Positions 15,800-31,240 are shown, counted from the first letter of the stretch. The stretch: DNA of 64,000 nucleotides from Oscillospiraceae bacterium (GCA_902784305.1 CACZUK010000002.1:505-64504); one strand, 5' to 3'. Notes: generated by a model not told the origin, from the letters alone. Made by a program: numbers and translations.

Positions 15800-15866
15800 C
15801 TGCCTGTTCGGGGGATTCTGTGGGAATCGTTCCGCTGAAAGACTGTGTTTTGGCAAGCGGAAGCGC

Positions 15867-16349
15867 TCAGCGGTTATCCACCTTTTCGGGGTAGAGGTCG
15901 TGGTTGGACAGGCGCTGCCAGGCCACCTCCTGCCAGCGGGTGCCGGGGCGCCCATAGTTGCAGTAGGGGTCGATGGAGATGCCGCCCCGGGGGGTAAACT
16001 TGCCCCAGACCTCGATATATTTGGGCTTCATCAGCTTGATGAGGTCCTTCATAATCACGTTGACCACATCCTCGTGGAAATCGCCGTGATTGCGGAAGGA
16101 GAACAGGTAGAGCTTCAAACTTTTGCTCTCCACCATGCGCTCTCCGGGGACGTAGGAAATGGTGATGGACGCAAAGTCCGGCTGTCCCGTGATGGGGCAC
16201 AGGCTGGTGAACTCCGGGCAGTTGAATTTGACAAAGTAGTCGTTGTCCGGGTGCTTATTCTGGAAGGTTTCCAGCACCTCGGGGGCGTAGTCGCTCTTGT
16301 AGACCGTGCCCTGGCTACCCAGCAGGGTCAGGTTCTCTTTCTCTCGCAT
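15867..16349 (-). CDS. queF: NADPH-dependent 7-cyano-7-deazaguanine reductase
   Basis: [16 protein letters not shown] and ESKSLKLYL QueF motifs. ATG at 16349 (MREKEN) lies just downstream of the queC stop, so the track extension was trimmed. Confidence 0.92.
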
Positions 16350-16368
16350 TTTGTGCTCCTTTCGTGGT

Positions 16369-17049
16369 TCACAGGGCCGGGTCGGCCACGCCGTTGGCGG
16401 CAAAGGCGGCGGCACGGTCGATGCAGGTGCCGCACGTTCCGCAGGGTGTCTCGCCGCCCTCGTAGCAGCTCCAGGTCAGATGGTAGGGCGCGCCCAGCTC
16501 CAGGCCGGTTTTCACCACCTGGGCCTTGTTGCTGCGCAGGAAGGGGGCCTCAATGCGCAGCTGGCGGCCGGAGCCCTCCCAGACAGCGGTGTTCATGGCC
16601 TCGTGGAAGGCGGGGGAGCAATCGGGATAGGCGGCACCCGCGGCGTCGTCGGCGTGAGCGCCGTAATAGAGCACGCCGCAGTCCAGGGACAGGGCGATGC
16701 TGGCGGCGGTGGAGAGGAACAGCCCGTTGCGGAAGGGCACATAGGTGCTCACCGGCGCGGAATCGTCCCGCTGTTCCAGCTGCTGGGCATAGCTCTCCCG
16801 GGGGATGTCCTGGTTGGACTGCTTGAGCAGGGAGCAGTCGCTGTACTGGAACACGGCGCTCAAATCCATCTCCAGCTGCCGCACGCCGTAGAAGCGCGCC
16901 ACGGCCCGGGCGGCGGCAAGCTCCTTGTCGTGCTTCTGCCCGTAGGAGACGGACAGAGCGATGACGTTTTCAGCGCCGTATTTGGAAACGGCCAGAGCCA
17001 GAGCGGTAGTGGAGTCCACGCCGCCGCTGGAAAGAACCAGTGCTTTCAT
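16369..17049 (-). CDS. queC: 7-cyano-7-deazaguanine synthase
   Basis: PP-loop LSSGGVDST and C-terminal Zn-Cys cluster [12 protein letters not shown]. Confidence 0.95.
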
Positions 17050-17060
17050 CTGTGTTCCTC

Positions 17061-17639
17061 CTATCTCAGATACATCTGAAGACTGGCGTCTTCTTGAAAC
17101 TTCCCCCGCAGCTCCACGCTCAGGGTCTTGCTGCCCGGCTTTTTGATGCCCCGGGCGGTCATGCAGCTGTGGCAGCCCTCCAGCAGCACCGCCACGTCCT
17201 CGCTGCCGGTGACCTCGGTGAGGATGTCCGCGATGTCCCGGCCGATGCGCTCCTGCAATTGCAGACGGCGGCCCACCATGTCGCAGATGCGGGCGATTTT
17301 GGACAGTCCAATCACCTTTCCCCTGGGAATGTAGGCCACCGTGGCCTTCATATCGTACATCAGGGCCATGTGGTGCTCGCAGTAGGAGAACAAATCAATG
17401 TCCTTGAGCACCACCATGCCCTTGCTGCCGTTGGCCTCGAAGCCCTCCTCGAAGGTCTTGTTGAACATCTGAGCAATCTCGTGGTTGGTGTAGTTCATGC
17501 CCGCAAAGACTTCCTCGTACATCTTTGCCACCCGCTCCGGGGTCTCCCGCAGGCCCTCCCGGTCGGGGTCGTCGCCCAGGGCCACCAGGATGCCGCGGAT
17601 GTGCTCTTCAATGGCTTTGGTATCAATCATCTCATACAC
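17061..17639 (-). CDS. folE: GTP cyclohydrolase I
   Basis: [22 protein letters not shown] and GLSKIAR motifs. Confidence 0.95.
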
Positions 17640-18291
17640 CTCTCTTATTTGGGTCCCAGATGAACTTGTGGAGCTGAAGTTGGAGGCGCACGCCGTTCAG
17701 GCGGTGCCGGGCCAGAAACTCCACCATCTCCGCTGGTTCAATGGAGCCGAACACCGGGCTCAGGTACACATGACAGCGGCCCACCAGCGCCTCCCGCGCG
17801 ATGACCTCCCGGGCGCGCTCCAGATCCGACTGGCTGCCGCAGACGAATTTCACTGTGTCCTCCGGCCGCAGCAGGGCGAAATTGTCCGTCTTCATGGCCC
17901 CCTCCATGCCGCTGGAGGGCAGCTTGTAGTCCATGGTGAACACGGGACGCCGCTCCGGCGCGCAGAAGGGTGCCAGCTCCACCGCGCCGTTGGTTTCGAT
18001 TTCCACCCGCAGCGCGCCGTCCCGGAGCAGCAGAGTCAGCAGGGCGGGCAGCTCCGGCTGGAGCAAGGGCTCGCCGCCCGTCAGGGTCACATTGGTCACG
18101 CCCAGCGCCCGCACACTGCGGTCGATTTCCTCCGGGGTGCGCTCCTCAAAGGCGCAGTCCGGCTCATTTGCCCACATGGTGTCGCAGTAGCCGCAGCGCA
18201 GATTGCAGCCCTGAAAGCGGACGAACACCGCCAGCTCTCCGGCCCGGGGTCCCTCGCCGTTGATGCTCAAAAACTGTTCGACTACCCGCAT
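17632..18291 (-). CDS. queE: 7-carboxy-7-deazaguanine synthase (radical SAM)
   Basis: INGEGPRAG and [10 protein letters not shown] motifs. Overlaps the folE start by 8 nt. Confidence 0.95.
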
Positions 18292-18294
18292 GGC

Positions 18295-18714
18295 TCACTC
18301 CTCATAGGCAGCGGCGTTGGCAGGGGTCTCGTAGACCTCCACCCGGCGCACGGGGCAGCCGTGTTCCCGCAGCCGTTGAAAGAACCACCGGGACAGCTCC
18401 TCCGCGGTGGGGCGGAAGGGCACCTCTGTCAGCCGGAACGCCTCCTCCCGCAGAGCGGCCAGGGTGGCGGGGCGGAGGGAGCCGGCCTCATAGATGAGGC
18501 TGTGGTCCATCTGCTCACAAAGCTCCTTCAGGAGCGCCTTGACGGCGCCGAAGTCCATCAGCATGCCCCGGGTCTGGGTCTCCCCGGACAGCGCGTCCCC
18601 GGAGAGCACAGCCACCACCCGCCAGCGGTGTCCGTGGAGGTTGCTGCACTTCCCCTGGTAGTCCTTGAGGAAGTGGGCGGCGTCAAAGCACTGTTCTGTC
18701 TTCAAAAGATACAT
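18295..18714 (-). CDS. queD: 6-carboxy-5,6,7,8-tetrahydropterin synthase
   Basis: FDAAHFL...CSNLHGHRW motif. Confidence 0.95.
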   Translation of the reverse strand: MYLLKTEQCFDAAHFLKDYQGKCSNLHGHRWRVVAVLSGDALSGETQTRGMLMDFGAVKALLKELCEQMDHSLIYEAGSLRPATLAALREEAFRLTEVPFRPTAEELSRWFFQRLREHGCPVRRVEVYETPANAAAYEE

Positions 18715-18878
18715 CGTAGTTCCTCATCGAAAAAGTCCCGCACAAGCATGCGGGACTCCTTTCTTCTCACCGGCGGGAAGGGGTTCTTCCCACCGGCTCA
18801 CAGCATGAAAAAAGCAGTCCCGGTTTTGATTTGGGGCAAGGCCCGGGGCAGGAGGGTACCAATGAACTGCCTGTGTCT
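18715..18878 (-). promoter_or_regulatory. structured que-operon leader with terminator-type hairpins (candidate preQ1-responsive element, class unresolved)
   Basis: Minus-strand leader contains GGCAG-N15-CUGCC, a CCGG..CCGG hairpin and ACUGCUUUUUU. It then has a long hairpin GCCGGUGGGAAG..CUUCCCGCCGGU, followed by GUCCCGCAugcuugUGCGGGAC plus UUUUU immediately before the GAGGAA RBS of queD. Confidence 0.4.
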
Positions 18879-18906
18879 ATTTTACAGGGGAAAGGGGGTT
18901 TGTCAA
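18879..18906 (-). promoter_or_regulatory. sigma-70-type promoter (TTGACA-N16-TAAAAT) of the que operon
   Basis: Reverse complement of 18901-18906 is TTGACA and of 18879-18884 is TAAAAT. Confidence 0.65.
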
Positions 18907-18926
18907 GGGGCAAATCGACAGAAAAG

Positions 18927-18960
18927 GGAAAAAGACGCGGCCCTCGTTTGGAGAGCCGCG
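18927..18960 (-). terminator. intrinsic terminator after the RecD2-fragment gene
   Basis: Minus-strand cgcggc...gccgcg stem followed by tcttttt. Confidence 0.6.
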
Positions 18961-19055
18961 GGGGAGGAGCAGGCAGCACCCATCGCGGAGGAGGCCGACG
19001 GGAGCTGCCCGCATTGTTGTTTTGATGTGCCGCGATTTTGTCCTGTCCGTGTCAC

Positions 19056-19478
19056 TCACCGGCCAAGCCGCTTTCTGATGCGCTCCACCCGAACCCGGCC
19101 GAGGCCGGGCACCTCCAGCAGCCGTTCCGGCTCATTTTCGATGATTTTCAGCGTATCCGTACCAAAACGCTGCACAATGCGCGCCGCAAAGCCGGGCCCG
19201 ACGCCCTTGATGACGCCGCAGCCCAGATATTGCTCCAAATCAGAGGCGGTTTCGGGCAGCGTCTCCTCAAAGGAGGTGACAGAGAACAGCCGTCCGTACC
19301 GCTCATCTTCCGTCCACTGGCCGCTCAGCGTCAGCACAGAACCGACGCGCACCTGCGCCGTCACGCCCGCCACAGGAACGAGGCCGCCAAGGTCCATCAG
19401 ACGGCAGAGAATCACCGAATGGTTGCCATCACCGGCGCAGTCGCCCGCGCGCGCAACGACACAGCGCAGATATTCCAT
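19056..19478 (-). CDS. RecD2-like helicase N-terminal region only (about 140 aa, truncated)
   Basis: MEYLRCVV...LTLSGQWTEDERYGRLF...LGCGVIKGVGPGFAARIVQRFG..TL.IIENEPERLLEVPGLG matches the OB plus helix-hairpin-helix N-terminus of RecD2. No P-loop helicase domains follow. GGGAGGAAA RBS precedes the ATG at 19478. Confidence 0.6.
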   Translation of the reverse strand: MEYLRCVVARAGDCAGDGNHSVILCRLMDLGGLVPVAGVTAQVRVGSVLTLSGQWTEDERYGRLFSVTSFEETLPETASDLEQYLGCGVIKGVGPGFAARIVQRFGTDTLKIIENEPERLLEVPGLGRVRVERIRKRLGR

Positions 19479-19516
19479 GGTCCGTTTCCTCCCTTGCTGG
19501 ATTGGCTTTGCCTGTG

Positions 19517-19633
19517 CCACCCGGACGCCGGTAAAGCTGGAGACAGCGCCGCCGCCCGGACGCCGGTGGAGCAGTAAACAGCGCCGCCGCCCGGACACCG
19601 GTCAAGCAGAAGACAGCGCCGCCGCCCCGAGCA
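19517..19633. repeat. 35-bp GC-rich tandem repeat, about 3 copies
   Basis: Unit acagcgccgccgcccggacRccggt..agca.. is repeated head to tail. Confidence 0.8.
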
Positions 19634-19725
19634 CGAAACGCAAGGACGAATCGCTCAGATGGCGGCGGAACGGCTGTCCATCGGCCCGGTCCTTCGCCGG
19701 TTCGCCGGGGGACGGCAGCTTACGT

Positions 19726-19843
19726 CCCGGCCGTTTATGTCCCGGCGGTTTGTGTCACGCGGTTTGCGCCCCGGTGGTTTGCGTTTCGGCGGTTTGTGCC
19801 CCAGCGGCTTGCGTTTCAGCAGCTTGCGCCCCGCAGTTTCTGT
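19726..19843. repeat. degenerate 30-bp (2 x 15) tandem repeat, about 4 copies
   Basis: cccggYggtttgYgt / YWcRgcRgYttgcgc units recur with a 15/30-nt period. Confidence 0.75.
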
Positions 19844-19907
19844 TCCTGATTATACCAGAGCGAAAGAAAAGCGATTACCCCGAAAAGTGGGGCAATCGCG
19901 GCTTTTC

Positions 19908-20393
19908 TCATTCCTCTGAGGGGGAGGCTGTCTTTGGGGAAGAGGCACCCTTTTTCGCCGGGGAGCGCAGCGGATTCATGCCCTGTGCGCGCAGCAGCGC
20001 GTCCACCTCCTCAATGGAGGTCAGGCCCTTGTGGAAGGCAGAGAGCAGCACCGCGTCCCGGGGCAGCCGCACATAGAGCGGCGCCATATGATACAGCCGG
20101 AGCGCGTGCTGAGTCTCCTCCAGGGTCAGATGACCCGCGATGCACAGGCGGAGGATGTAATCACGCTGTTTTGTTCTCTTTTCCTCCGAGAGAATCTGAT
20201 ACCCGACCTTCTGGGCGAAGCCGACCCGGATGAACAGATTGTGCTGCTTTACGCCGTGGCTGGCGAGCACCGCGCGCATATACGCGGCAAAGGGCTTCTC
20301 CTGGAGGTAAAGCTCCTCCTGATGCTGGCGCAGGAACTGCTCCGGGGCGGTCTCCTTCAGCAGTGCCTCCAGCTCATCGGTATTTTTCTTCAT
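19908..20393 (-). CDS. hypothetical protein with XRE-like helix-turn-helix segment
   Basis: Coding-like composition. The stretch HNLFIRVGFAQKVGYQILSEEKRTKQRDYILRLCIAGHLTLEETQ resembles an HTH_XRE core. Divergent from the Ser/Thr kinase gene. Confidence 0.55.
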   Translation of the reverse strand: MKKNTDELEALLKETAPEQFLRQHQEELYLQEKPFAAYMRAVLASHGVKQHNLFIRVGFAQKVGYQILSEEKRTKQRDYILRLCIAGHLTLEETQHALRLYHMAPLYVRLPRDAVLLSAFHKGLTSIEEVDALLRAQGMNPLRSPAKKGASSPKTASPSEE

Positions 20394-20459
20394 CTGGCTC
20401 TTTTCACCCCTTTAAAATGTGGTATAATGACATAAATCGTTGAATTGTGAGGGAACGCC

Positions 20460-21524
20460 ATGTTAGCTGATTCGTCCGCGCTCTTGTCCTGCTATCGGGT
20501 TCTGGGCGCTCTGAATCCTGAGAAAAATGTTCAAATTATCCAGGACAGAGGCACAAACAAGCTGTATCTTCTAAAGGAATATGAACAATACGACGCCGAC
20601 GTGTACGCCTGGCTCCAGTCGCACCCCATTGCGAACATGCCGCAAATCATCGCGCTTTCCCGGGAGGGGGAGCGGCTGCTGGTGGTGGAGGAGTATCTGG
20701 CGGGGGAGACCGTGCAGGAGCTGCTGGACACCCAGGGCCCCTTCTCCGAGGAGGCCGCGGCGGACTGCATCCTTCAGCTGTGTACGATTCTCAGCGCCCT
20801 CCACGCCGCGCAGCCGCCCATCATCCACCGGGACATCAAGCCGTCCAACCTGATTCTCTCCCCGGACGGCGTCCTGAAGCTCATTGATGTGAACGCGGCC
20901 AAGCGATGCAAAGAGCACACGGACCGGGACACCGCCCTGCTGGGCACTCCGGGCTACGCTGCGCCGGAGCAGTACGGCATCAGCAGCTCCAGCGTGCAGA
21001 CGGATTTGTTCGCGGTGGGCTCGCTGATGAACGTGATGCTGTGCGGGGAGCTGCCCACGACACAGACGGCAGGGGGACGTCTGGGACCCATCATCCGGAA
21101 GTGTCTGGAGCTGAACCCCCGGAACCGCTACGCCTCTGCGGAGGAGCTGGCCCGGGCAATCCGAACCACGATGCGCACCGCACAGCCGCAGGGCTGGCGA
21201 AGGCTGCTCCCGCCGGGCCTGCGCAGCGGCAACCCCTTTCTCACCGCCGCCGCCCTGTTGGGCTACCTCCTGCTGCTGTGCATCGGCATGACCCTCGATG
21301 TCCAGCCCGCGGAGCATCCGGCCAATGTGCTTGCGGACCGGCTGCTGATGAGCGCCATGCTGATTTGTCTGGTGCTGTTCACGGGCAACTTTCTGAACGT
21401 GCAGCGATTTCTCCCCTTTTCCCGCCGAAAGGGCCTCCGGCTTGTGTCCATTCTTCTGGGTGACGTGCTCATTGTGCTTTTCTTTGCGCTTTGCGCCTCC
21501 ATCCTTCAGACCTATGTGTTCTGA
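20460..21524 (+). CDS. Ser/Thr protein kinase with C-terminal transmembrane segments
   Basis: HRDIKPSNLIL, DVNAAK and GTPGYAAPEQ motifs, with a hydrophobic C-terminal third. Confidence 0.9.
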   Translation: MLADSSALLSCYRVLGALNPEKNVQIIQDRGTNKLYLLKEYEQYDADVYAWLQSHPIANMPQIIALSREGERLLVVEEYLAGETVQELLDTQGPFSEEAAADCILQLCTILSALHAAQPPIIHRDIKPSNLILSPDGVLKLIDVNAAKRCKEHTDRDTALLGTPGYAAPEQYGISSSSVQTDLFAVGSLMNVMLCGELPTTQTAGGRLGPIIRKCLELNPRNRYASAEELARAIRTTMRTAQPQGWRRLLPPGLRSGNPFLTAAALLGYLLLLCIGMTLDVQPAEHPANVLADRLLMSAMLICLVLFTGNFLNVQRFLPFSRRKGLRLVSILLGDVLIVLFFALCASILQTYVF

Positions 21525-21670
21525 GCGCGGACGGAGCGGCTTCGGCGCGGTCAGGGGAGGGCGCTTTTCCAGCGCAAAAGCCGGAATTCCCTTGTCATCC
21601 ATTTGACTGGCTAAATCATGGAGCAAAAACGCGAAAACAAGCAATTCTGCGAAAACGGAGGAATATTCAG

Positions 21671-22762
21671 ATGAAAAACAAACGCTTTCGATGGTGGCGC
21701 ATCCCGCTGCTGCTGACGCTGGCGCTGCTTCTGGCGGTCTACATCGTCTATCTGCTCACGACCTACCACCGAATCGAGGACAATCTGCCCCTGGAGGTGC
21801 GCGGAACCGCCCGGGAACCGGCGGAAACAGACAAAGAGTACACAATCGTGAGCTATAACATCGGATTTGGCGCCTACACGGCGGATTTTACCTTCTTTAT
21901 GGACGGAGGCAAAGAGAGCCGCGCCCGCTCAGAGGAGAGCGTTCTGAACTGTGTGCGGGAGAGCGCCAAGACCGCGCTGTCCTTCGACCCGGATTTCGTC
22001 CTGTTTCAGGAGGTGGACACCGGCTCCACCCGCAGCTACCAGGTGGATGAGGCGCAGCTGATTCAGGAGGCCTTTGACGCGCAGGGGGACTTTGACAGCG
22101 TGTTTGCGCAGAACTATCATTCCGCCTACCTGTTCTACCCCTTCACGAAGCCGCACGGGGCCTCCAATTCCGGGCTGCTGACCCAGAGCCGCGCGGACAT
22201 CGCCTCCTCGCTGAGAAGAAGTCTGCCCATCGCCTCCGGCCTGAAGAAGTATCTGGATTTGGACCGCTGCTACAGCGTCTCCCGGATTCCCGTGGCAGAC
22301 GGCCGGGAGCTGATTCTGGTCAACGCGCACCTCTCCGCCTACGGAACCAATGCCGGGCAGGGGCAGGCGCAGATGGAACAGCTCTTCGCGGATTTGAAAA
22401 AGGAGTACGAACAGGGCAATTATGTGATTTGCGGCGGGGATTTCAACCACGATTTCACCACCAACTCCAAGGCGCTTCTGAACCCCGGCAACGCTGATAC
22501 CTTCAGCTGGTGCCACCCGTTTCCGGATGAGCTGATTCCGGCGGGCTTCTCCAAGTGCACGGATTACGCCGACGGACTCACCGCGACCACGCGCAACACC
22601 GACATCCCCTATGGGGAGGACAGCTTCACCGCGGTTCTGGACGGCTTTCTGGTCTCCGACAACGTGAAATGCAGCTATGTGCAGAACATCGACACCGGTT
22701 TTCTCTATACCGACCACAACCCGGTTGTCATGCGCTTTGCGCTCAGCCCGGCGCAGGGGTGA
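21671..22762 (+). CDS. endonuclease/exonuclease/phosphatase (EEP) family protein, N-terminal TM anchor
   Basis: VSYNIGFG, FQEVD, NAHLSAY, GGDFNHD and TDHNP motifs. GGAGG lies 8 nt before the ATG at 21671, so the track extension was trimmed. Confidence 0.85.
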   Translation: MKNKRFRWWRIPLLLTLALLLAVYIVYLLTTYHRIEDNLPLEVRGTAREPAETDKEYTIVSYNIGFGAYTADFTFFMDGGKESRARSEESVLNCVRESAKTALSFDPDFVLFQEVDTGSTRSYQVDEAQLIQEAFDAQGDFDSVFAQNYHSAYLFYPFTKPHGASNSGLLTQSRADIASSLRRSLPIASGLKKYLDLDRCYSVSRIPVADGRELILVNAHLSAYGTNAGQGQAQMEQLFADLKKEYEQGNYVICGGDFNHDFTTNSKALLNPGNADTFSWCHPFPDELIPAGFSKCTDYADGLTATTRNTDIPYGEDSFTAVLDGFLVSDNVKCSYVQNIDTGFLYTDHNPVVMRFALSPAQG

Positions 22763-23064: not shown

Positions 23065-23218
23065 ATAGAATAACCGAATCAACCGGGAGGACGCCCTTTT
23101 GATCGCGTCCCCCGGGTTGCCTGTCCGGAGATGCCTCTGTCCGCAGAATGAGCCCGGGGAACCCCTGATTGCCGCCCACAGGTCATCAGCGGGTCCTCGT
23201 GCAGGGAGGTGCTGTGTC

Positions 23219-24646
23219 ATGTCCTTTTCGTTGAATAAGAAGGTGATTGTGCTGATTGTGAGCTTCGCCGCCATCATCAGCATGCTGGCCGTTGCAGTTT
23301 ATTACAAGGGAATTCACGATGTCGTTGTGTCCCAGTATGAGGGACGCTCCATCGACATTGCCAAATTGACGGCAGTGGAAATCGACGCTGAGCGGCTGTT
23401 GAAGGTTCAGCAGGCTGTGCTGGAAATCTACAACAGCACCGACAACAAAGTGCTGAGCGACCAGGCGGGAACGCCGGAGTTTGAGGCGTATCTCTCCCGT
23501 TACAAATCCATCGAAGAGATGGAGGAGTACCAGACGGTGCGTGCCGACCTGCGCAGAATGCAGGACGTGCTGGATGTGGACTGCCTCTACGTGTTCTGGC
23601 TGGACACGGTCAACGGGTGCTATGTTTACCTTGTGGACGCCGACAACGCCGACCCCTGTCCGCCGGGCTGCATCGACCCGCTCTATTCCGACATCGGCGA
23701 CACGCTGACGGACCCATCCCTGGGCTGCCCGCCCAACATCACCAACACGCCGGAATACGGCGGGCTGGTGACGACGGCGATGCCGGTCTATGACAGCAGG
23801 GGCGAGGTCATCGCCATGGCGGCTGTGGACATCTCCATGGATGTCGTTATGGCCCGGCAGCAGCGCTATTTGGTGTACGTCGTGCTGGCCTTCCTGGGCA
23901 TGACCATTCTCGTGTGCGTTTTGAGCATCCTGCTGGTGAATCACTACATCGTCAGGCCCATCAACACCCTCTCCTCGGCGGCGGCGCAGTACCGGCACAA
24001 CAAAAAGGTGTTTTCCAGCCTGCACATTTCCGGGCGCGACGAAATCGGCACCCTGGCTGCCTCCATGGTTCAGATGGAGGCGGACATCGACGGCTACATC
24101 ACCAACCTGAAGCGGACCTCCAACGACCTCATCTCCGCCCGCGAACACGCCGAGCAGATGGACCGCGCGGCGAACATTGACGCGCTGACCAAGGTCCGCA
24201 ACAAGCGCGCCTATGACATCGAGGTCCAGCGGCTCAACGAGAGCCCGCAGCCCTACGGCCTCATCATGATTGACCTGAACGGCCTGAAGGGCATCAACGA
24301 CACCTACGGCCATGAGAAGGGCGACATCAGCATCAAGACCCTCTGCCAGATGATTTGCCGGGTCTTCCAGCACTCTCCGGTATACCGGGTGGGCGGGGAT
24401 GAGTTCATCGTCATCCTCGAAAACAGCGATTATCAGGAGCGCTCGGCACTGATTCAGACGATTTCGGACCAATTTCAGCGCAATCTTGCCGACACCGTCC
24501 GGCCGCCCTGGGAGCGCGTGACGGCGGCGGTGGGCTACGCGGTCTGTGAGCCGGGCACGGGGGAGCGCGTGGAAAGCGTTTTGAAACGTGCGGACGCGGC
24601 GATGTATCAAAACAAAAAGGCAATGAAGGCCGCGCTCAAATCATAA
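23219..24646 (+). CDS. membrane diguanylate cyclase (extracytoplasmic sensor domain, HAMP-like, GGDEF)
   Basis: Two TM segments flank a region of about 250 aa. Intact YRVGGDEFIVIL, plus DALTKVRNKRAY and NDTYGHEKGD. GGGAGG RBS. Confidence 0.9.
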   Translation: MSFSLNKKVIVLIVSFAAIISMLAVAVYYKGIHDVVVSQYEGRSIDIAKLTAVEIDAERLLKVQQAVLEIYNSTDNKVLSDQAGTPEFEAYLSRYKSIEEMEEYQTVRADLRRMQDVLDVDCLYVFWLDTVNGCYVYLVDADNADPCPPGCIDPLYSDIGDTLTDPSLGCPPNITNTPEYGGLVTTAMPVYDSRGEVIAMAAVDISMDVVMARQQRYLVYVVLAFLGMTILVCVLSILLVNHYIVRPINTLSSAAAQYRHNKKVFSSLHISGRDEIGTLAASMVQMEADIDGYITNLKRTSNDLISAREHAEQMDRAANIDALTKVRNKRAYDIEVQRLNESPQPYGLIMIDLNGLKGINDTYGHEKGDISIKTLCQMICRVFQHSPVYRVGGDEFIVILENSDYQERSALIQTISDQFQRNLADTVRPPWERVTAAVGYAVCEPGTGERVESVLKRADAAMYQNKKAMKAALKS

Positions 24647-25016: not shown

Positions 25017-25045
25017 TTGAAAAGCGTCTGAGGTTGTGTTATAAT
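25017..25045 (+). promoter_or_regulatory. sigma-70-type promoter (TTGAAA-N17-TATAAT) of the RiPP-like operon
   Basis: Hexamers at 25017-25022 and 25040-25045. Confidence 0.6.
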
Positions 25046-25157
25046 GCCTGTTCAAAGGGTGTAAGCGCCTGAATCTGCGAATCATACCGCGGCAGGGGTG
25101 CGATGGCTGCTTTCCGCCCCATGCCCGCTTGAAATTGAAGGATGGAAGAACGAGACT

Positions 25158-26315
25158 ATGAACCGAGAACAGGCGTTGTTATTGACCGTATTGGGTGATT
25201 TTTTACACCAGAGAAAGACAGTCGCGCAAACGCAGGATTGCGCCTGGTCCGCTCTGTTCCGGTGTGGAGAGAAGCACAGGCTCAACGGCATTGTGTACTG
25301 CCAGCTCGGCAAACAGATTCCGGAGCCCTTCTTTTCGGAGTTTCACACGGAGTATCTGGCCTCCATCGTCCGCTACCGGCACAGACAGGTGCTTGTGAGG
25401 CAGATGGAGGAGGTCCTCCGGCGCAGCGGAGTGGACTATTTCTTCGTCAAGGGCGACTTAATCGGCGCGCTCTACACCAATCCGATGCTGCGCTCCGTCA
25501 GCGATGTGGACCTGGTGGTTCCGGCGGACCGGCTCGCGTCCCTCCACGACCCTCTGACGAAGGCGGGCTTTGAGCGCATCGAAAAGGGCAAGGGCGTCTG
25601 GGCCTACCGCAAGGAGACCGTGACCTTTGAGCTCCACAGAGCCCTCATTTTCTCCACCCACCGGGAGGATGACGCCATTGCGGACTATCTCCACCGCTGC
25701 TGGGACAGCGTCGAGGATGGAAAGCTGGACTGGAATTTCCACATGATTTATCTGCTCCTGCACCTGAGAAAGCACTTTCGTACCTCCGGTGTGGGATTCC
25801 GGCAATTTCTGGATCTGGCTTTTGTGGCCCAGAAGATTCCCCTGGACTGGGCCTACATCCGCAGGGAAATGGAAGGGCTGGGGCTGTGGCGATTCACCCT
25901 GACGGTGATGAACCTCTGCGACGTGTGGTTTGACACCCATTGCGCGCCGGAGAATCTGGAGCTGAACCGGGAATTTGTGGAACGGGCCACAGACACCATC
26001 TTCCGAAACGGCATCTTCGGCTACGCCAACGAGGAGAACAAGGGCAACGATTTCGTCAACGCCGCACGGAGCGACGGCCTTCCCGGTTTGCTGAAGCAGC
26101 TGCAGCTGCTGCTGTTTCCGGGCTATCTGGCGCTGCACAAGACGAGAAAATTCGGATTCCTGTACAACCGGCCCTGGCTGCTGCCTCTGGCCTGGCTGAA
26201 GCGCTATGTTCTCCTCATTTCGGAGCACAAGGCGGTGGGAAAGCTGCGCAGTCTGATTCGTATCCGCCATACGATTGGGAGACGGAACGACACCTACGAT
26301 GAATGGGGGCTGTGA
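25158..26315 (+). CDS. uncharacterised nucleotidyltransferase family protein (PF14907/NTP_transf_5-like)
   Basis: Central ...YFFVKGDLIGALY......SVSDVDLVVP... motif (G-x-x, DxD) and overall layout are typical of the family seen beside PqqD/HprK-like genes. Confidence 0.75.
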   Translation: MNREQALLLTVLGDFLHQRKTVAQTQDCAWSALFRCGEKHRLNGIVYCQLGKQIPEPFFSEFHTEYLASIVRYRHRQVLVRQMEEVLRRSGVDYFFVKGDLIGALYTNPMLRSVSDVDLVVPADRLASLHDPLTKAGFERIEKGKGVWAYRKETVTFELHRALIFSTHREDDAIADYLHRCWDSVEDGKLDWNFHMIYLLLHLRKHFRTSGVGFRQFLDLAFVAQKIPLDWAYIRREMEGLGLWRFTLTVMNLCDVWFDTHCAPENLELNREFVERATDTIFRNGIFGYANEENKGNDFVNAARSDGLPGLLKQLQLLLFPGYLALHKTRKFGFLYNRPWLLPLAWLKRYVLLISEHKAVGKLRSLIRIRHTIGRRNDTYDEWGL

Positions 26316-26348
26316 GCCCGGAACAAGCAACGGAAGGAGGCTGCTGCC

Positions 26349-27461
26349 ATGCTTTGCTATCAAATCGGCCCTCTGAGCGTCAGTATGGACGCCGCGCCGG
26401 AGAGCTGGCAGCCCTTCCGGACGCAGAATGCGGCAGAGCCGCTGCTCCGGGTGGAGCGGACAGACGAGCCAGTGGATTTGACCGGCTGGCGGCTGATGGC
26501 GGAGCATGAGATGATGCACGTCTGGCGCAGGGAGGAGCTGTCAGCGGGCTGGCTGTTTCAGGACAGCCGCTTTCACGGCTGGCTCTGGCTCTCCCCCGAC
26601 GGGATGCTTGCCCGCTTCCACACGGCGGGGGCGCAGGAGGGCTCCTACGCGCTGCTGCTCCAGGCGGCGGCGGAGTGTGCCCTGATTCGTCTGGGCGTCA
26701 TGATTCTACACGCTGCCTGTGTGTGTGTGGAGGGGGAGGCGGTGGCCTTTTCCGGCCCCTCCGGCGCTGGGAAATCCACCCGCGCCGCGCAATGGGTGAA
26801 GCTGCTCGGTGCCCGGATGCTCTCCGGGGACCGGCCCGCCGTGGACCCCGCCTCCGGCATCGTCCGGGGTGTGCCCTGGGACGGCAAGGAGCGGGTGTTT
26901 GTCAACGCCGCCGCGCCGCTGCGGGCCATTGTGGAGGTGCGCCGGGGCAGCTGTGTGAAGCTGCGCCGGATGACGGACCGGGAGGCCCGGTCCTTCCTGG
27001 CCGGTCAGCTGTTGATTCCCATGTGGGACACGCCCCTGGCGGCAAAGGCACTCTCCGGCCTGCGCCGGTTGATTGCCCGGGTGCCCATCTACCGGCTCTA
27101 CAGCGATGGTGATGAGCAATCCGCCCTGAAAAGCTATGAGATTCTGTTCCGGAATCCGGAGCAGATTGAAGAATGTGAGGAGGAAATCAAGATGAGACTG
27201 AAGCCCGGATTTGAAATCGTACAGATTGACACCGATTATCTGGCGCTGCCCACCGGAGAGAACATCGCGGCCTTTGCCGGCTCTGTGGTGCTCAACGAGG
27301 TCTCCGCCACCCTGCTGCGGGAGCTGTCCGGGCGCGAGTGCAGCCGGGAGGACCTGCTGGAGCTGCTGCTGAACCAGTACAAGGTGGAACGGGACGTGGC
27401 CGCTCAGGATTTGGACAACATCCTCAAGACCTTCGCGGAAATCGGTCTGACCGAGGGATGA
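26349..27461 (+). CDS. HPr-kinase-like P-loop protein fused to a C-terminal PqqD-family (RRE) domain
   Basis: LHAACV..EGEAVAFSGPSGAGKST...SGD resembles the HprK C-terminal kinase core. The last 90 aa or so (MRLKPGFEIVQIDTDYLALP...VLNEVSATLL..L....S.EDLLELLLNQY.V....A..DLDNILKTF.E.GL) read as PqqD-like. GGAAGGAGG RBS. Confidence 0.8.
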   Translation: MLCYQIGPLSVSMDAAPESWQPFRTQNAAEPLLRVERTDEPVDLTGWRLMAEHEMMHVWRREELSAGWLFQDSRFHGWLWLSPDGMLARFHTAGAQEGSYALLLQAAAECALIRLGVMILHAACVCVEGEAVAFSGPSGAGKSTRAAQWVKLLGARMLSGDRPAVDPASGIVRGVPWDGKERVFVNAAAPLRAIVEVRRGSCVKLRRMTDREARSFLAGQLLIPMWDTPLAAKALSGLRRLIARVPIYRLYSDGDEQSALKSYEILFRNPEQIEECEEEIKMRLKPGFEIVQIDTDYLALPTGENIAAFAGSVVLNEVSATLLRELSGRECSREDLLELLLNQYKVERDVAAQDLDNILKTFAEIGLTEG

Positions 27462-27970
27462 GCCAGGCGGAGCAGTCCTCCATCGTCCTCTCGGTGGAGC
27501 AGTGGTTGGAGCTGGTGCAGCGGGGCGCGAACATCCCTGTCACCATCCCCCTGATGGGCACCAGCATGCTGCCCGTCATCCGCTACAAGGTGGACCCCAC
27601 CACCATCGTGCCCCTGCGCCGGGAGCCTCTGGAGGGGGACATCGTCCTCTTCCGCCGCTTTGGGGACGGGGCCTGGGTGGTTCACCGGGTCTACCGGGTC
27701 ATGGGCGACCAGGTCCAGACCTGGGGGGACAACAGCCCCCGGCCGGACCACCCCGTCAGCCGGGAGGACGTGCCGGGGCTGGTGATCTCCATCTGCCGGA
27801 ACGGCAAAACCATCCGTCTGGACACGGAGGAGCAGCGCTGCTGGGGTGTAAAGTGGATGCACAGTACAGTGCGCCGCCGCCTCTGGTTCGCCTGGAGCAG
27901 CCTCCGTTGGCTTCCGGGGAAGCTGATTCGGAAGGTCTGGCCGGATTTTCACAAGAACAAGGGGAACTGA
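27458..27970 (+). CDS. S24/S26-family serine peptidase (signal-peptidase-I/LexA-like fold)
   Basis: Nucleophile motif GTSMLP and downstream GDIVLF...HRV...GDN. The ATG overlaps the upstream stop (ATGA). Confidence 0.8.
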   Translation: MSQAEQSSIVLSVEQWLELVQRGANIPVTIPLMGTSMLPVIRYKVDPTTIVPLRREPLEGDIVLFRRFGDGAWVVHRVYRVMGDQVQTWGDNSPRPDHPVSREDVPGLVISICRNGKTIRLDTEEQRCWGVKWMHSTVRRRLWFAWSSLRWLPGKLIRKVWPDFHKNKGN

Positions 27971-27971
27971 T

Positions 27972-29117
27972 ATGCCGCAAGAACAGATGCCCCGCAGTCT
28001 GGCCCAGCTGATGGCTCAATTGCGTGCGGAGGGCGTGCCGGAATGGCAGTATCATCGGCGCATCATGCGCTATTTTGATTTCAAAGCCAGAGAAAAGGGG
28101 ATTCCCTTTACAGGCACCTTTGAGCTGACGCCCCTTTGCAACCTGGATTGCAGGATGTGCTACGTCCACCTGACCCGGGAGCAGATGGGCGGCGCGAGGC
28201 TCCTGGAGCCGGAGGTCTGGAAAGTCCTGATGGACCAGGCCATTGACGCGGGCATGCGCAAAGCCCGGCTCACGGGCGGGGAGTGCCTGACCTATCCCGG
28301 CTTCGACGAGCTGTATCTGCACCTCCAGAGCCGCGGCGTGGAGGTGATGGTGCTGACCAACGGCGTCCTGCTGGACGAGGCGCGGACGGCGTTTTTCCAA
28401 AAGCACCCGCCCTGTGAGATTCAGGTCACGCTCTACGGCTCCGATGAGGACGCCTACCAGCGCGTCACCGGACGGCGGATGTTCCAACGGGTGTGGGAGA
28501 ACGTGAACCGGGCCAACCGCGCCCAGCTGCCCCTCACCATCGCCATCACCCCCAGCCAGTTCATGGAGCGGGACGCGGACGCCCTGCTGGACCGGGCGGA
28601 GGAGCTGGGCCTGCCCTACAACATCAATTTCGGGCTCTTTGACCCCAGAGAGGAGACGGGACGGCAGCCGGGCGAGAGCATGGACGCCTCCCTGGACCTG
28701 TACATCCACCTCTACAAGCGCAAGCGCGCCCATCAGGGCATTGCGCTGACCCCGGTGGACGAGCGGGAGCTGCCCAGCCCCAGCACCGCCTCCGACCCCC
28801 GAAAAGGGGTCCGGTGCGCGGCCGGGCGCAGCATGTTTGAAATCGACTGGACCGGCACCATGTACGGCTGCACGAATCTGAGAAGCGTCCGGGCCAGGCC
28901 CCTGGAGACCGGCTTTGCCGCGGCGTGGCAGGTGGTCCACACCGGTGTGCAGGAGGTCATCATCCCCTCGGAGTGCGGCAGTTGCGTCTACGCGCCCATC
29001 TGCGTGGTGTGTCCCGCCGCCCACGAGCAGAACGGGTCCGCTGCCCACTGCAACCCCGTCTACTGCAAACGGGTGCAGAGGATGGTGGCGGAGGGATTGA
29101 ACGAAATTCCTGAATGA
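27972..29117 (+). CDS. radical SAM enzyme with C-terminal SPASM domain (peptide maturase type)
   Basis: CNLDCRMC radical SAM cluster and GGECL. C-terminal Cys set CAAGRS...GC...CGSCVYAPICVVCPA...C. Starts 1 nt after the previous stop. Confidence 0.92.
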   Translation: MPQEQMPRSLAQLMAQLRAEGVPEWQYHRRIMRYFDFKAREKGIPFTGTFELTPLCNLDCRMCYVHLTREQMGGARLLEPEVWKVLMDQAIDAGMRKARLTGGECLTYPGFDELYLHLQSRGVEVMVLTNGVLLDEARTAFFQKHPPCEIQVTLYGSDEDAYQRVTGRRMFQRVWENVNRANRAQLPLTIAITPSQFMERDADALLDRAEELGLPYNINFGLFDPREETGRQPGESMDASLDLYIHLYKRKRAHQGIALTPVDERELPSPSTASDPRKGVRCAAGRSMFEIDWTGTMYGCTNLRSVRARPLETGFAAAWQVVHTGVQEVIIPSECGSCVYAPICVVCPAAHEQNGSAAHCNPVYCKRVQRMVAEGLNEIPE

Positions 29118-29174
29118 TGTTTCCCCCTCCGACAGGGGAAGACATAGAACTGTCTGAAGAAAGGAGGACTCTCA

Positions 29175-29339
29175 ATGGATATGGAGAAGAAGGAGTACGA
29201 GACTCCCGTAGCCGAGAAGGTCAATTTCAGCTATCGTCAGCAGGTTGTCGCGGCCAGCGATGATGATGCTTGTGACGAGGTTTGGACCAGAAAAAAGGGC
29301 ACTGGCTGCCATGAAAAGCTGGTTTCCTACGGTGACTAA
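29175..29339 (+). CDS. 54-aa candidate RiPP precursor peptide (absent from the ORF track)
   Basis: Own translation: MDMEKKEYETPVAEKVNFSYRQQVVAASDDDACDEVWTRKKGTGCHEKLVSYGD. AAAGGAGGA at 29160-29168 lies 6 nt before the ATG. Located between the rSAM and exporter genes. Leader-like YETP (YxxP) motif, two Cys, and a Ser near the C-terminus. Confidence 0.6.
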   Translation: MDMEKKEYETPVAEKVNFSYRQQVVAASDDDACDEVWTRKKGTGCHEKLVSYGD

Positions 29340-29349
29340 GTTTTGAATC

Positions 29350-29372
29350 GGGAGGGGGGGAGACCCCCTCCC
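29350..29372 (+). promoter_or_regulatory. GC-rich hairpin directly after the precursor ORF (possible attenuator or mRNA stabiliser)
   Basis: 9-bp stem gggaggggg/ccccctccc with a 5-nt loop, 11 nt after the TAA. No clean T-run follows. Confidence 0.5.
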
Positions 29373-29449
29373 TCCTGTCTGTGGGCGCGTCAGATTGCTG
29401 CGCTGCCCGCGGCGGGAAACGCGAGCGGAACAGGACAGGGGGGAAGGCC

Positions 29450-31171
29450 ATGTTCCGGGACAAACTGAAAAAAGTCTTTGTCAGCCCTGCCCTGGGAGAC
29501 ATCGTGCGCTGGTCCAGACCGGCCCGTCTGGGGGTGGCCGGCATCTGTCTGACAGACGCCGTCAACGCGCTGTGCTCTCTGGGGACGACCCTGTGCACCA
29601 GGGAACTCATCGACGCGGCCACCGGTCGGGAGTGGGCGCCGCTGCGGCTGTACGGCATCCTGCTGGTGAGCGTGGCGGTGCTGGAGCTGATGAACGCCTA
29701 TGGTCACCGGCTCCTGAAGCGGCGCACGGAGGCGAAGCTGTACAACCACCTCTGTGCCCAGACCCTGACCCAGATTCTGGACAAGCAGTACGCCGGCATG
29801 GAGAGCTACCACAGCGGTGAGCTGGTCAGCCGCGTTCAGGGGGACGTGAGTCTGGTGCGCAACGGCATCGTCGGGGTCCTGCCCAAGCTGGTGTCCATGC
29901 TGGTGGGCTTCTTCGGCGCCGCGGCCATTCTGATTTCCATGGACTGGCGCTTTGCCTTTGCGCTGGTGGCCCTGGGCGTCATTGGTGCGTGGATGCTGGC
30001 GGTGCTGCGGCATCCCATGAAGCGGCGGCAGGCGAACGTGCGCAAGCTGGAGGGCAGCATTCAGGCAATGCTCCAGGAGACGCTGCAAAATCTGCGCCTG
30101 GTGAAGGCCAGCGGCAGCGAGGCCAGGATGGTGGACAAGCTCCGGGGCCGTCAGGAGCATTACTATGACACGGTGATGGAACAGACCGCCTTCTCCGCCA
30201 AGGTGAATCTGGGCATCGGCACGCTCTATCACGTCTCCTGGCTGTTCTGCATGCTCTGGGGCGGCTGGGGCATCTACCGCGGCGTGCTGACCTATGGCTC
30301 ATTGGCGGCAATCATCCGGCTGGTGGGGGAGATTCAGGCCCCCATCGGCGAGGCTGCCGAGCTGGCGGCGCAGGCGCTCTATACCGTCACCTCCGCCGAG
30401 CGGCTCAAGGAGCTGCTGGACCTGCCGGACGAGGAGGAGGCCCCCAACATCTCCGGGCGGGAGCTGTATGAGAGCCTGAGGGACATCCACGCGGAGCACC
30501 TCACCTTTTCCTATGGCCGGGAGAGCGACAATGTGCTGGAAAACGCCGAGCTCACCATTCGTCCCGGCTCCTTTGTGGCGCTGACCGGAGCGTCCGGCGG
30601 CGGAAAGAGCACCCTGTTCCAGCTCCTGCTGGGCATCTACCATCCCACCGGGGGCAGCCTGAACTTCCGCTTCGCGGACCACACCGAACCGGCCTCCCGC
30701 CGGACCAGACCTCTGTTCACCTATGTACCCCAGGGCAACACGCTCTTCTCCGGCACGCTGCGGGAGAACTTCTCCATGTTCTCTCAGGGCACCACGGACG
30801 AGGAGATTATGGACGCCGCCCGGGTGGCGTGCATTGATGAGCTGGTGGAGCAGCTGGAGGATGGTCTGGACACGGTCATCGGTGAGCGGGGCGTGGGCCT
30901 TTCTGAGGGCCAAGCCCAGCGGGTGGCGGTCGCCCGGGCGCTGCTGAGCCGCGCGCCGATTCTGCTTCTGGACGAGGCCACCAGCGCGTTGGATGAGCAG
31001 ACGGAGGCCCTGCTGCTCTCCCATCTGGAGGACCTGCGGGACAGGGGCCAGGAGCTGACCTGCCTGATTGTGACCCACCGCCGTGCGGCGCTGTCCATCT
31101 GCGACTACCGCCTGCATCTGGAGCAGGGGACCTTTCACCGGCTGGACGGGCGGGAAGCGGAAACGGTCTGA
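29450..31171 (+). CDS. ABC exporter, fused permease and ATPase (MsbA/bacteriocin-exporter type, no peptidase domain)
   Basis: Six-TM N-terminal half. Walker A GASGGGKST, signature LSEGQAQR, Walker B ILLLDEATSALD. Start trimmed to the ATG at 29450 (MFRDKLKK). Confidence 0.9.
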   Translation: MFRDKLKKVFVSPALGDIVRWSRPARLGVAGICLTDAVNALCSLGTTLCTRELIDAATGREWAPLRLYGILLVSVAVLELMNAYGHRLLKRRTEAKLYNHLCAQTLTQILDKQYAGMESYHSGELVSRVQGDVSLVRNGIVGVLPKLVSMLVGFFGAAAILISMDWRFAFALVALGVIGAWMLAVLRHPMKRRQANVRKLEGSIQAMLQETLQNLRLVKASGSEARMVDKLRGRQEHYYDTVMEQTAFSAKVNLGIGTLYHVSWLFCMLWGGWGIYRGVLTYGSLAAIIRLVGEIQAPIGEAAELAAQALYTVTSAERLKELLDLPDEEEAPNISGRELYESLRDIHAEHLTFSYGRESDNVLENAELTIRPGSFVALTGASGGGKSTLFQLLLGIYHPTGGSLNFRFADHTEPASRRTRPLFTYVPQGNTLFSGTLRENFSMFSQGTTDEEIMDAARVACIDELVEQLEDGLDTVIGERGVGLSEGQAQRVAVARALLSRAPILLLDEATSALDEQTEALLLSHLEDLRDRGQELTCLIVTHRRAALSICDYRLHLEQGTFHRLDGREAETV

Positions 31172-31204
31172 GCCGCCGCGGCCTCAGCCATCGGAACAGC
31201 CTTC

Positions 31205-31240
31205 AAAAAAACGCTGAGTCAATCAGCGTTTTTTTCTTTT
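31205..31240 (+). terminator. intrinsic terminator closing the RiPP-like operon
   Basis: Stem aacgctga/tcagcgtt followed by tttttttc. Confidence 0.8.

Follow-up and report, generated by a model that had tools for sequence, protein, structure and literature searches.

What is made by an operon that joins accessory genes of the kind found in phosphorylated lasso peptide clusters to a radical SAM (rSAM) enzyme, with no lasso cyclase in sight? Such an operon lies within a 64,000-nucleotide stretch of DNA from an Oscillospiraceae bacterium (GCA_902784305.1 CACZUK010000002.1:505-64504; hereafter the window). An earlier note, made from the sequence alone, proposed that six co-directional genes form a single transcript encoding a peptide natural product cross-linked by the rSAM enzyme, possibly phosphorylated or nucleotidylated, trimmed by a peptidase, and exported. 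We confirmed the six genes at 25158-31171 on the plus strand; a public gene caller gave the same coordinates, with lengths of 385, 370, 170, 381, 54 and 573 aa. They lie between a near-consensus sigma-70-type promoter at 25017-25045 (TTGAAA-N17-TATAAT, matching 11 of 12 positions, with the upstream TG of an extended -10) and an intrinsic terminator at 31205-31235 with a 13-bp stem flanked by A and T runs (z-score -3.2). Intergenic gaps are 33 nt, a 4-nt ATGA overlap, 1 nt, 57 nt and 110 nt, the last being larger than the 1-60 nt given in the earlier note.

We next asked whether the encoded proteins are what they appear to be. The first gene (25158-26315) encodes a PF14907 (NTP_transf_5) nucleotidyltransferase (NTase; E 3e-34), in which K98-G99, D116-x-D118, E158 and H160 are conserved in 27 relatives. 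The second (26349-27461) encodes a P-loop kinase predicted to have an HprK/PEPCK fold (about residues 1-270) fused to a PqqD/RRE domain (about residues 280-370; PF05402 at residues 313-367, E 7e-9). HPr-kinase likeness is weak by HMM: TIGR04352 scores 27.3 bits and TIGR04355 24.3 bits against cutoffs of 200, with only the P-loop region aligning, and Hpr_kinase_C gives E 0.27. The fold, however, confirms it: an AF2 model (pLDDT 92.8) matches PEPCK (2e-6) and L. casei HprK/P (5e-4) in Foldseek, and its C-terminal domain matches lasso B1 RREs in their leader complexes, TbiB1 (5v1v_A; E 6e-5, TM 0.80, rmsd 1.9) and TfuB1 (TM 0.79-0.80 for the two). The kinase domain is also homologous to the characterised RRE-assisted lasso precursor kinase BsfK (hhalign probability 96%, E 3.8e-9), with seven of eight BsfK motif residues kept.

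The third gene (27458-27970), whose start overlaps the upstream stop, encodes a soluble Ser/His peptidase of S26 type (ER/SipW-like). The S24/S26 assignment fails in Pfam for the window protein alone, and TIGR02228 matches at E 1.3e-9 but below its cutoff. The assignment nevertheless holds at family level, as a family profile hits the signal peptidases SpsB and SEC11A/C at about 1e-5, and 16 of 31 relatives hit PF00717 and 3 hit PF10502. G34, S36, M37, P39, H76 and R77 are invariant, with S36 and H76 aligning to the SEC11/SpsB catalytic positions. In contrast to ER-type signal peptidases (SEC11, archaeal SPase I, Bacillus SipW) it has no membrane anchor, as no 19-residue segment reaches a Kyte-Doolittle mean of 1.6 in any of 46 family members; encoded inside a RiPP-type operon, it presumably acts in the cytoplasm on a leader peptide rather than on a secretory signal peptide.

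The fourth gene (27972-29117) encodes a radical SAM enzyme (PF04055, E 5e-20) with a C-terminal SPASM-like Cys cluster. C56-x3-C60-x2-C63 is invariant in 12 homologues; C282, C300, C335, C338, C344 and C347 are invariant, and C365 is kept in 90% or more, although the Pfam SPASM model was not among the hits at E 0.01 or better. The best fold matches are the RiPP maturases SkfB and SuiB, and PqqE, anSME and CteB are also matched, with full-length matches to SuiB, anSME, CteB and PqqE at TM 0.56-0.65. The model has only two N-terminal helices before the barrel, and thus no RRE of its own. The last gene (29450-31171; start supported by homology) encodes an ABC exporter with fused TMD and NBD (ABC_membrane plus ABC_tran) and no C39 peptidase domain, with 47-54% identity to the ABC genes of the nearest cassettes.

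Between these two genes lies the precursor (29175-29339), a 54-aa peptide reading MDMEKKEYETPVAEKVNFSYRQQVVAAS followed by DDDACDEVWTRKKGTGCHEKLVSYGD, preceded by the strong ribosome-binding site AAAGGAGG at 29160-29167, 7 nt before its ATG. A leader HMM hits it at E 3.2e-15, and nothing else in the window. Directly after its stop codon, within the 110-nt gap, G+C-rich hairpins at 29350-29417 (first stem 29350-29372; z-score -2.95) are likely an attenuator or mRNA-stabilising element, and probably set a high ratio of precursor to enzyme transcripts; a similar GGGAGGGGG/CCCCCTCCC hairpin sits at the same place in three other loci (z-score -5.6 in one of them).

The arrangement is far beyond chance, because it recurs. 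Relatives of the rSAM enzyme occur in 473 species genomes, and among 42 related loci of at least 15 kb, 40 have the peptide, 41 the kinase/RRE, 36 the peptidase, 29 the ABC gene and 24 the NTase; the NTase and ABC genes are therefore accessory. A conserved small ORF is present in 71 of 80 homologous neighbourhoods, in one to nine copies per locus. The resulting 143 peptides share the leader MKKxYETPxAEKVxFxYxDQVVA[SA]SG, with leader columns 80-100% conserved and core columns about 15-25%. Of 141 hypervariable cores, 100 have exactly two Cys, with spacing modes of 11 and 14, and 138 have at least one, making Cys the one near-universal core feature; W or Y sits at C1+4 in 54%. Of 311 public clusters of such peptides none is named, no curated HMM names the rSAM enzyme or the peptide, and we found no description of this gene set in NCBIfam, in Pfam or in ten literature searches, which did not cover closed-access papers.

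We conclude that this is likely a single-transcript operon that matures and exports a ribosomally made peptide (a RiPP), although no product has been observed and every chemical step is inferred. We suggest that the RRE domain binds the YxxP leader and presents the peptide both to its own kinase domain and, in trans, to the rSAM enzyme, consistent with variant loci in which a free-standing 88-103-aa PqqD gene directly precedes or overlaps an rSAM gene. The kinase is predicted to phosphorylate the conserved junction Ser, here Ser28 (29256-29258): BsfK is stimulated by its RRE and phosphorylates Ser3, 19 residues after the Tyr of YxxP, and a Ser/Thr lies at +18 to +20 in 134 of 136 precursors of this family. 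The rSAM enzyme would install one or two Cys-dependent cross-links, most likely thioethers from Cys33 (29271-29273) and Cys45 (29307-29309). Curated maturase models score far below cutoff, however (PapB 38 of 340, SkfB 43 of 300, AlbA 40 of 850, StsB 29 of 625), fold matches do not discriminate chemistry, two Cys could simply form a disulfide, and 12 of 141 cores have one Cys or none. The NTase, with its intact DxD motif, may decorate the phosphate, as reported for pseudomycoidin (PMC8498205), and the S26-type peptidase would remove the leader at the V-V-A / A-x-S junction, which fits the -3,-1 rule, before export by the ABC protein.

These data strengthen the kinship with paeninodin-type lasso accessory genes proposed in the earlier note. 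The phosphorylated and phosphoglycosylated lasso clusters (paeninodin PadeK, pseudomycoidin PsmK/PsmN, Bradymonas BsfK/BsfB1) share the YxxP leader (the YxxPxL motif is described in PMC10368454), the B1-like RRE, a homologous HprK-fold kinase, a nucleotidyltransferase, an ABC exporter, and a Ser about 19-20 residues after the YxxP Tyr. Here, however, the RRE is fused to the kinase, and an rSAM enzyme and an S26-type peptidase take the places of the lasso cyclase and the transglutaminase-like B2 protease. No Asn-synthetase-like or transglutaminase-like protein was found among about 36 window ORFs scanned, nor does a lasso cyclase appear among the recurrent gene families of the 80 loci. The sactipeptide and ranthipeptide maturases (SkfB, AlbA, CteB, PapB) share the rSAM core and what appears here to be a C-terminal auxiliary Cys cluster, but typically carry an N-terminal RRE, and those classes have no associated kinase, NTase or S26 peptidase. 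Beyond the HPr-rel-A system (TIGR04352) cited in the earlier note, grasp-with-spasm (HprK_rel_B, TIGR04355) and the SynChlorMet cassette (ScmC/D/E/F) also appear to be bioinformatic precedents for an HprK-like protein with PqqD and rSAM/SPASM, though probably without an S26 peptidase or this precursor family. Relatives of the window kinase carry precomputed PF27840 ScmC hits, marked faint at the three homologues where a mark is given, but ScmE and ScmF score only 47.9 and 46.5 bits against 400 and, given also the low TIGR04352 and TIGR04355 scores, the operon is not a member of any of these systems.

Of the alternatives, the one that survives best, although we consider it less likely, accepts peptide maturation but changes its function: the cassette may primarily be an accessory module of capsule/EPS pathways, the modified peptide acting as a regulator, signal, primer or covalent partner of the polysaccharide, and the window copy being a detached version. 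This context was missed by the earlier note. Core cps genes lie within 8 kb in 44 of 80 related loci, and 33 carry two or more. The position is fixed: LytR-CpsA, Wzz/BY-kinase, CpsB, the cassette, then Bac_transf and glycosyltransferases, all on one strand. Junctions indicate translational coupling: CpsB to S26 overlaps by 4 nt in 9 loci, BY-kinase to ABC is 12-30 nt in 8 loci, and NTase to Bac_transf overlaps in 6 loci. The 60%-identical relative lies between a BY-kinase and VanZ, NTase, DegT, GT2 and EpsG genes, and in pseudomycoidin the homologous kinase/NTase pair makes a phospho-glycosyl peptide (PMC8498205). No experiment links the two systems, however; the window has no cps gene in 64 kb, its 81%-identical relatives are also free-standing in different flanks, and capsule loci are recombination hot spots that collect cargo genes. 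Hypervariable, multi-copy cores are, moreover, typical of antagonistic or signalling peptides, not of a structural primer.

It is unlikely that the kinase-like domain is merely an ATP-binding scaffold or chaperone supplying the RRE to the rSAM enzyme, with the junction Ser/Gly serving only as a peptidase recognition site. The first Asp of the HprK/BsfK DD pair is indeed an invariant Gly, so activity could differ from HprK and BsfK, HMM scores to HprK families are very low, and the A-x-S|G pattern by itself fits the -3,-1 rule. Nevertheless H121, the full P-loop G136-x2-G139-x-G141-K142-S143, D161, W177-D178-G179-K180 and P224-M-W-D227 are invariant across 31-41 homologues, which is unexpected for a pseudo-enzyme; free-standing kinase genes without PqqD persist next to separate PqqD genes in variant loci; and the Ser/Thr offset matches the BsfK target. 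It is very doubtful that the rSAM enzyme is instead a sulfatase-maturase-like or cofactor-biosynthesis enzyme beside a fortuitous ORF. Although anSME is among the fold matches (TM about 0.64) and the best NCBIfam hits include PqqE and MoaA, those hits cover only the common rSAM core at 5-20% of their cutoffs, no sulfatase gene lies nearby, the small ORF is conserved, and cofactor precursors have conserved rather than hypervariable cores. Least plausible is a decayed lasso cluster, which would explain the shared YxxP leader, RRE, kinase and NTase, but all six ORFs are intact with their catalytic residues, the same cyclase-less set recurs in the 80 loci examined, always with an rSAM gene, and the cores show no conserved lasso ring-forming G1...D/E8-9 pattern.

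We suggest that this operon represents a real but uncharacterised RiPP family, large and unnamed, in gut and rumen Clostridia. Its frequent place inside capsule-sugar operons bears on its function, and suggests a role that the simple picture of a secreted RiPP does not explain.

We examined the region 25017-31240, which contains what the earlier note had described: six co-directional ORFs lie at 25158-26315, 26349-27461, 27458-27970, 27972-29117, 29175-29339 and 29450-31171, and a public gene caller made the same calls on an identical metagenomic contig, giving proteins of 385, 370, 170, 381, 54 and 573 aa. A promoter-like site, TTGAAA-N17-TATAAT with an upstream TG, matches at 11 of 12 positions, and a 13-bp hairpin flanked by A and T runs closes the operon at 31205-31235. 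Intergenic distances are 33 nt, a 4-nt ATGA overlap, 1 nt, 57 nt and 110 nt; the last exceeds the 1-60 nt proposed in the earlier note because homologues support ATG 29450 as the start of the ABC gene. The small ORF has a strong AAAGGAGG ribosome-binding site 7 nt upstream.

We next identified the encoded proteins. The first gene (25158-26315) encodes a PF14907 nucleotidyltransferase (NTase; E 3e-34), with K98-G99, D116-x-D118, E158 and H160 conserved in 27 relatives. The second (26349-27461) has a C-terminal PqqD domain (E 7e-9), but its HMM similarity to HPr-kinase families is only faint (TIGR04352 27 bits and TIGR04355 24 bits against cutoffs of 200, and Hpr_kinase_C at E 0.27). An AlphaFold model built on 41 homologues is nevertheless confident, with pLDDT 92.8; its N-terminal two-thirds match ATP-dependent PEP carboxykinases (E 2e-6) and Lactobacillus casei HprK/P (E 5e-4 to 1.5e-3), and its C-terminal domain superposes on lasso B1 RRE proteins crystallised with their leader peptides, TbiB1 5v1v_A (E 6e-5, TM 0.80, rmsd 1.9 A) and TfuB1 6jx3_B. 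Invariant residues of this kinase::RRE fusion include H121, S138, G141-K142-S143, G160-D161-R162-P163, W177-D178-G179-K180, and P224 with W226; M225 and D227 are each invariant in one of the two alignments and at least 90% conserved in the other. In more distant relatives, proteins of about 380-400 aa (protein representatives P0458, P0459, P0463, P0473 and others) match the kinase profile only in their C-terminal part, in two stretches, suggesting a permuted domain order with PqqD N-terminal to the kinase.

The third gene (27458-27970) has no Pfam hit on its own and only a sub-threshold archaeal/ER-type signal-peptidase hit (TIGR02228, E 1.3e-9), but a profile of 31 family members hits S. aureus SpsB (6e-6) and human SEC11A/C (about 1e-5), 16 of 31 members hit PF00717, and 3 hit PF10502. 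G34, S36, M37, P39 and H76-R77 are invariant and align with the SEC11 catalytic Ser and His, and none of 46 members has a TM-like segment; this is a soluble Ser/His S26-type peptidase. The fourth gene (27972-29117) encodes a radical SAM (rSAM) enzyme with C56-x3-C60-x2-C63 and seven conserved C-terminal Cys. Its model (pLDDT 87.9) has only two helices before the barrel, so it has no RRE of its own, and best matches the RiPP maturases SkfB and SuiB, followed by PqqE, anSME and CteB; these are generic SPASM/twitch matches that cannot assign chemistry, and no NCBIfam equivalog comes near its cutoff. The sixth gene (29450-31171) encodes a fused TMD-NBD ABC exporter without a peptidase domain.

To determine whether the set is conserved we scanned one genome per species, and found relatives of the rSAM enzyme in 473 genomes, the best of them only 57% identical; the 80 best loci are almost all from gut or rumen Clostridia. 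Among the 42 loci of at least 15 kb, 40 carry a homologous small ORF, 41 a kinase/RRE homologue, 36 the peptidase, 29 an ABC exporter and 24 the nucleotidyltransferase, while 13 have all six genes. The usual order is S26, rSAM, peptide(s), kinase::RRE, ABC. The window order (NTase, kinase::RRE, S26, rSAM, peptide, ABC) recurs in the 81%-identical relatives, loci L081-L083, which have different flanks; Blautia sp. MSJ-9 (locus L003) has the same core order, kinase::RRE to ABC, but its NTase lies about 3.5 kb upstream with three other genes between. In L081 (7761-8813) and L082 (7748-8800) a 350-aa gene with no Pfam match follows the ABC exporter with overlapping stop and start codons, and could encode an immunity or accessory protein; it is absent from the window, where the terminator follows the ABC gene. 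Database-wide there are 2063 rSAM homologues at E 1e-10 or better, 906 kinase::RRE homologues at E 1e-5 or better, and 356 kinase::RRE 50%-identity representatives at E 1e-30 or better; the few that carry a source name are called “hypothetical protein,” “radical SAM protein” or “PqqD family peptide modification chaperone.”

In a variant architecture the RRE is a free-standing gene of 88-103 aa that immediately precedes or overlaps an rSAM gene, and the kinase lacks the PqqD domain, which fits an RRE that serves the rSAM enzyme as well as the kinase. Seven Acutalibacteraceae loci (L049, L064, L067, L070, L073, L075 and L077; for example L064:10694-13504) carry a second module of a free PqqD gene, an rSAM paralogue, an 89-aa precursor (MKKKYIAPESRLIAINMNEGIAAVSGG... 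with two Cys), a kinase without PqqD and an S26 gene, which looks like a sister system with a related leader. In two further related loci (L026:7123-7359 and L050:7170-7403) double-glycine-type peptides (...LENVVGG/VFQFYKGG... and ...LDQVVGG/AFHYNY...) lie just upstream of the variant PqqD-rSAM-kinase-S26-ABC cassettes; they may be a separate bacteriocin or an alternative substrate.

A leader HMM found 143 peptides in 71 of the 80 loci, one to nine per locus, and in the window found only the 54-aa ORF (29175-29339). The leader is M-K-K-x-Y-E-T-P-x-[AV]-E-[KV]-[VI]-x-F-x-Y-x-[DE]-Q-V-V-A-[SA]-S-G, with Y, P, F and Q each present in 87% or more (P in all 143). YxxP is the lasso leader motif recognised by B1 RREs (PMC10368454); a search of the PDB with the precursor profile, which might have hit lasso leader chains, found nothing, and the leader likeness therefore rests on the YxxP motif and the RRE fold. 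After the junction conservation collapses. Of 141 cores, 100 contain exactly two Cys, with spacing modes of 11 and 14 residues; an aromatic residue sits at C1+4 in 54% and Asn at C1+6 in 35%, and a tail of about 11 residues follows the second Cys. The window core, DDDACDEVWTRKKGTGCHEKLVSYGD, is canonical: C-x3-W with a spacing of 11. Twelve of 141 cores have one Cys or none, some of them (for example in loci L015, L045 and L048) beside a second rSAM paralogue. In L015, L044, L045 and L048 (for example L048:9708-9902), long, Trp-rich cores with at most two Cys (none in the example, DPTLNNPDSGTQIGGNNGYWGQVWEFINGVWQWFERWFG) carry the same leader and occur in loci with a second rSAM paralogue of 33-40% identity, suggesting a different cross-link chemistry. 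A profile search of 5.8 billion proteins found 311 clusters, none with a Pfam domain or a name beyond “hypothetical protein.” A G+C-rich hairpin (GGGAGGGGG...CCCCCTCCC) follows the precursor stop codon in the window (29350-29417) and in relatives of 50-81% rSAM identity (L081:5970-5998, L003:9460-9482 and, in a further related locus, L084:11500-11540), and is likely an attenuator or mRNA-stabilising element.

We then compared the kinase with BsfK from a Bradymonas lasso cluster, an HprK-like kinase that phosphorylates Ser3 of the core, is strongly stimulated by the RRE BsfB1, and depends on the motif H148-G163-G166-G168-K169-S170-D186-D187 (PMC10368454). Against a translation of the published gene, the window kinase aligns at 47% identity over the catalytic core, and the family profile aligns over 198 columns with an hhalign probability of 96% and E 3.8e-9. 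Seven of the eight motif residues are kept (H121, G136, G139, G141, K142, S143 and D161), although the first Asp is an invariant Gly160, so that the DD pair is altered. In BsfA the phosphorylated Ser lies 19 residues after the Tyr of YxxP and is followed by Gly; in 134 of 136 precursors of this family a Ser or Thr lies at +18 to +20, usually as S-G, and in the window it is Ser28, at +20. We therefore predict, from geometry and homology rather than demonstration, that Ser28 is the kinase target.

The interpretation in the earlier note, of a peptide that is cross-linked by the rSAM enzyme, possibly phosphorylated or nucleotidylated, trimmed by the S26-like peptidase and exported, is supported, although its chemistry is inferred. 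Most likely, the RRE domain binds the YxxP leader; the fused kinase phosphorylates the junction Ser; and the SPASM-like rSAM enzyme uses the same RRE in trans to make Cys-dependent cross-links. Thioethers are the simplest guess for these, because Cys is the only near-universal core feature and SkfB and CteB are among the closest folds, but two Cys could also form a disulfide. The NTase may extend the phosphate, as in pseudomycoidin, where a kinase/NTase pair yields a phospho-glycosylated Ser (PMC8498205). We infer that the soluble S26-like peptidase removes the leader and that the ABC protein exports the product; both V-V-A/ and A-x-S/G satisfy the -3,-1 rule, and position -2 relative to the Ser is the variable one.

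Clustering of the neighbouring genes, after discarding two clusters of antisense ORFs of G+C-rich genes (c6 and c10) as artefacts, revealed an unexpected context: 44 of the 80 loci, 33 of them with two or more markers, carry core capsule/EPS genes. The layout is fixed, with LytR-CpsA, a 390-aa protein, Wzz/BY-kinase, CpsB phosphatase, the cassette (S26, rSAM, peptides, kinase::RRE, ABC, sometimes NTase), then the priming Bac_transf and glycosyltransferases, all on one strand. This embedding is seen in related loci L008, L018, L028, L031, L048, L064-L079, L084, L087 and L088 (for example L088:4997-17258), of which L087 and L088 are independently annotated contigs. Junctions are operon-like: CpsB to S26 overlaps by 4 nt in 9 loci, BY-kinase to ABC is 12-30 nt in 8 loci, and NTase to Bac_transf overlaps in 6 loci. 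The 60%-identical relative sits between a BY-kinase and VanZ, NTase, DegT, GT2 and EpsG genes.

The window itself, in contrast, has no cps genes in 64 kb, and the operon is free-standing; its flanks are c-di-GMP signalling proteins, a GNAT and a phosphoesterase. The window is unusually rich in c-di-GMP signalling proteins (8266-10935, 11331-13052, 23099-24646 and 55414-58326), comprising PAS-GGDEF-EAL, REC-GGDEF-EAL, HAMP-GGDEF directly upstream of the operon, and SBP-GGDEF-EAL, and an EAL protein also lies upstream of the cassette in L084. A run of mostly co-directional ORFs of 183-859 aa at 13912-22762 has no Pfam match at E 1e-4 or better, apart from a weak Exo_endo_phos hit at 21491-22762, although some ORF calls may be wrong in this G+C-rich DNA. 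On the reverse strand lie a 1397-aa CotH-kinase protein with LTD and Big_2 domains (42089-46282) and a 677-aa SIR2_2 plus TPR protein (50769-52802), the latter architecture recalling defence or NAD-depleting systems.

The capsule coupling may reflect function, in a peptide that regulates, primes or decorates the polysaccharide, or cargo accumulation in a recombination hot spot; the translational coupling in many lineages argues for more than chance. One possible reading, which we regard as unlikely on present evidence, is that the family is a peptide arm of capsule/EPS biosynthesis in gut Clostridia, in which an rSAM-cross-linked peptide, phosphorylated on its junction Ser, would be further phospho-glycosylated or nucleotidylated and would then act as a dedicated regulator, primer or covalent partner of the cell-surface polysaccharide. 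That would explain why the cassette is translationally coupled between cpsB/D and the priming transferase in many lineages, and the window operon would be a free-standing derivative. We considered and rejected an anSME, a cofactor (PQQ- or mycofactocin-like) pathway and a decayed lasso cluster.

The system works like a RiPP pathway, and shares its recognition and phosphorylation module with phosphorylated lasso peptides, but it is not a lasso cluster, because it has no cyclase and no B2 protease among the window ORFs scanned. Nor is it a member of any curated rSAM maturase family, HPr-rel-A, HprK_rel_B or the SynChlorMet cassette, as all scores fall far below cutoff. Literature searches returned only lasso-peptide papers or nothing relevant, and no description of this gene set, although prior description cannot be fully excluded as closed-access literature was outside their reach. 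What appears to be new is the combination of enzymes, with a soluble signal-peptidase-like enzyme as the inferred leader protease and a kinase fused to its RRE, in a family that is large, unnamed and uncharacterised.

If the inference holds, this is a widespread and entirely uncharacterised class of modified peptides made by abundant gut and rumen Clostridia, including Acutalibacteraceae, Oscillospiraceae and Lachnospiraceae (one cultured Blautia isolate carries the full gene set). It joins lasso-type leader recognition and phosphorylation to radical-SAM chemistry, with leader removal falling to a cytoplasmic signal-peptidase-like enzyme, a peptidase type we are not aware of as a dedicated RiPP leader protease; the fixed distance between the YxxP motif and the conserved Ser predicts the phosphorylation site, and the hundreds of hypervariable cores would let currently unannotated genes be named. 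The operon-level coupling to capsule loci, like which we found nothing described, hints at a connection between ribosomal peptide chemistry and surface polysaccharides, and could matter for how gut commensals build or regulate their surfaces.
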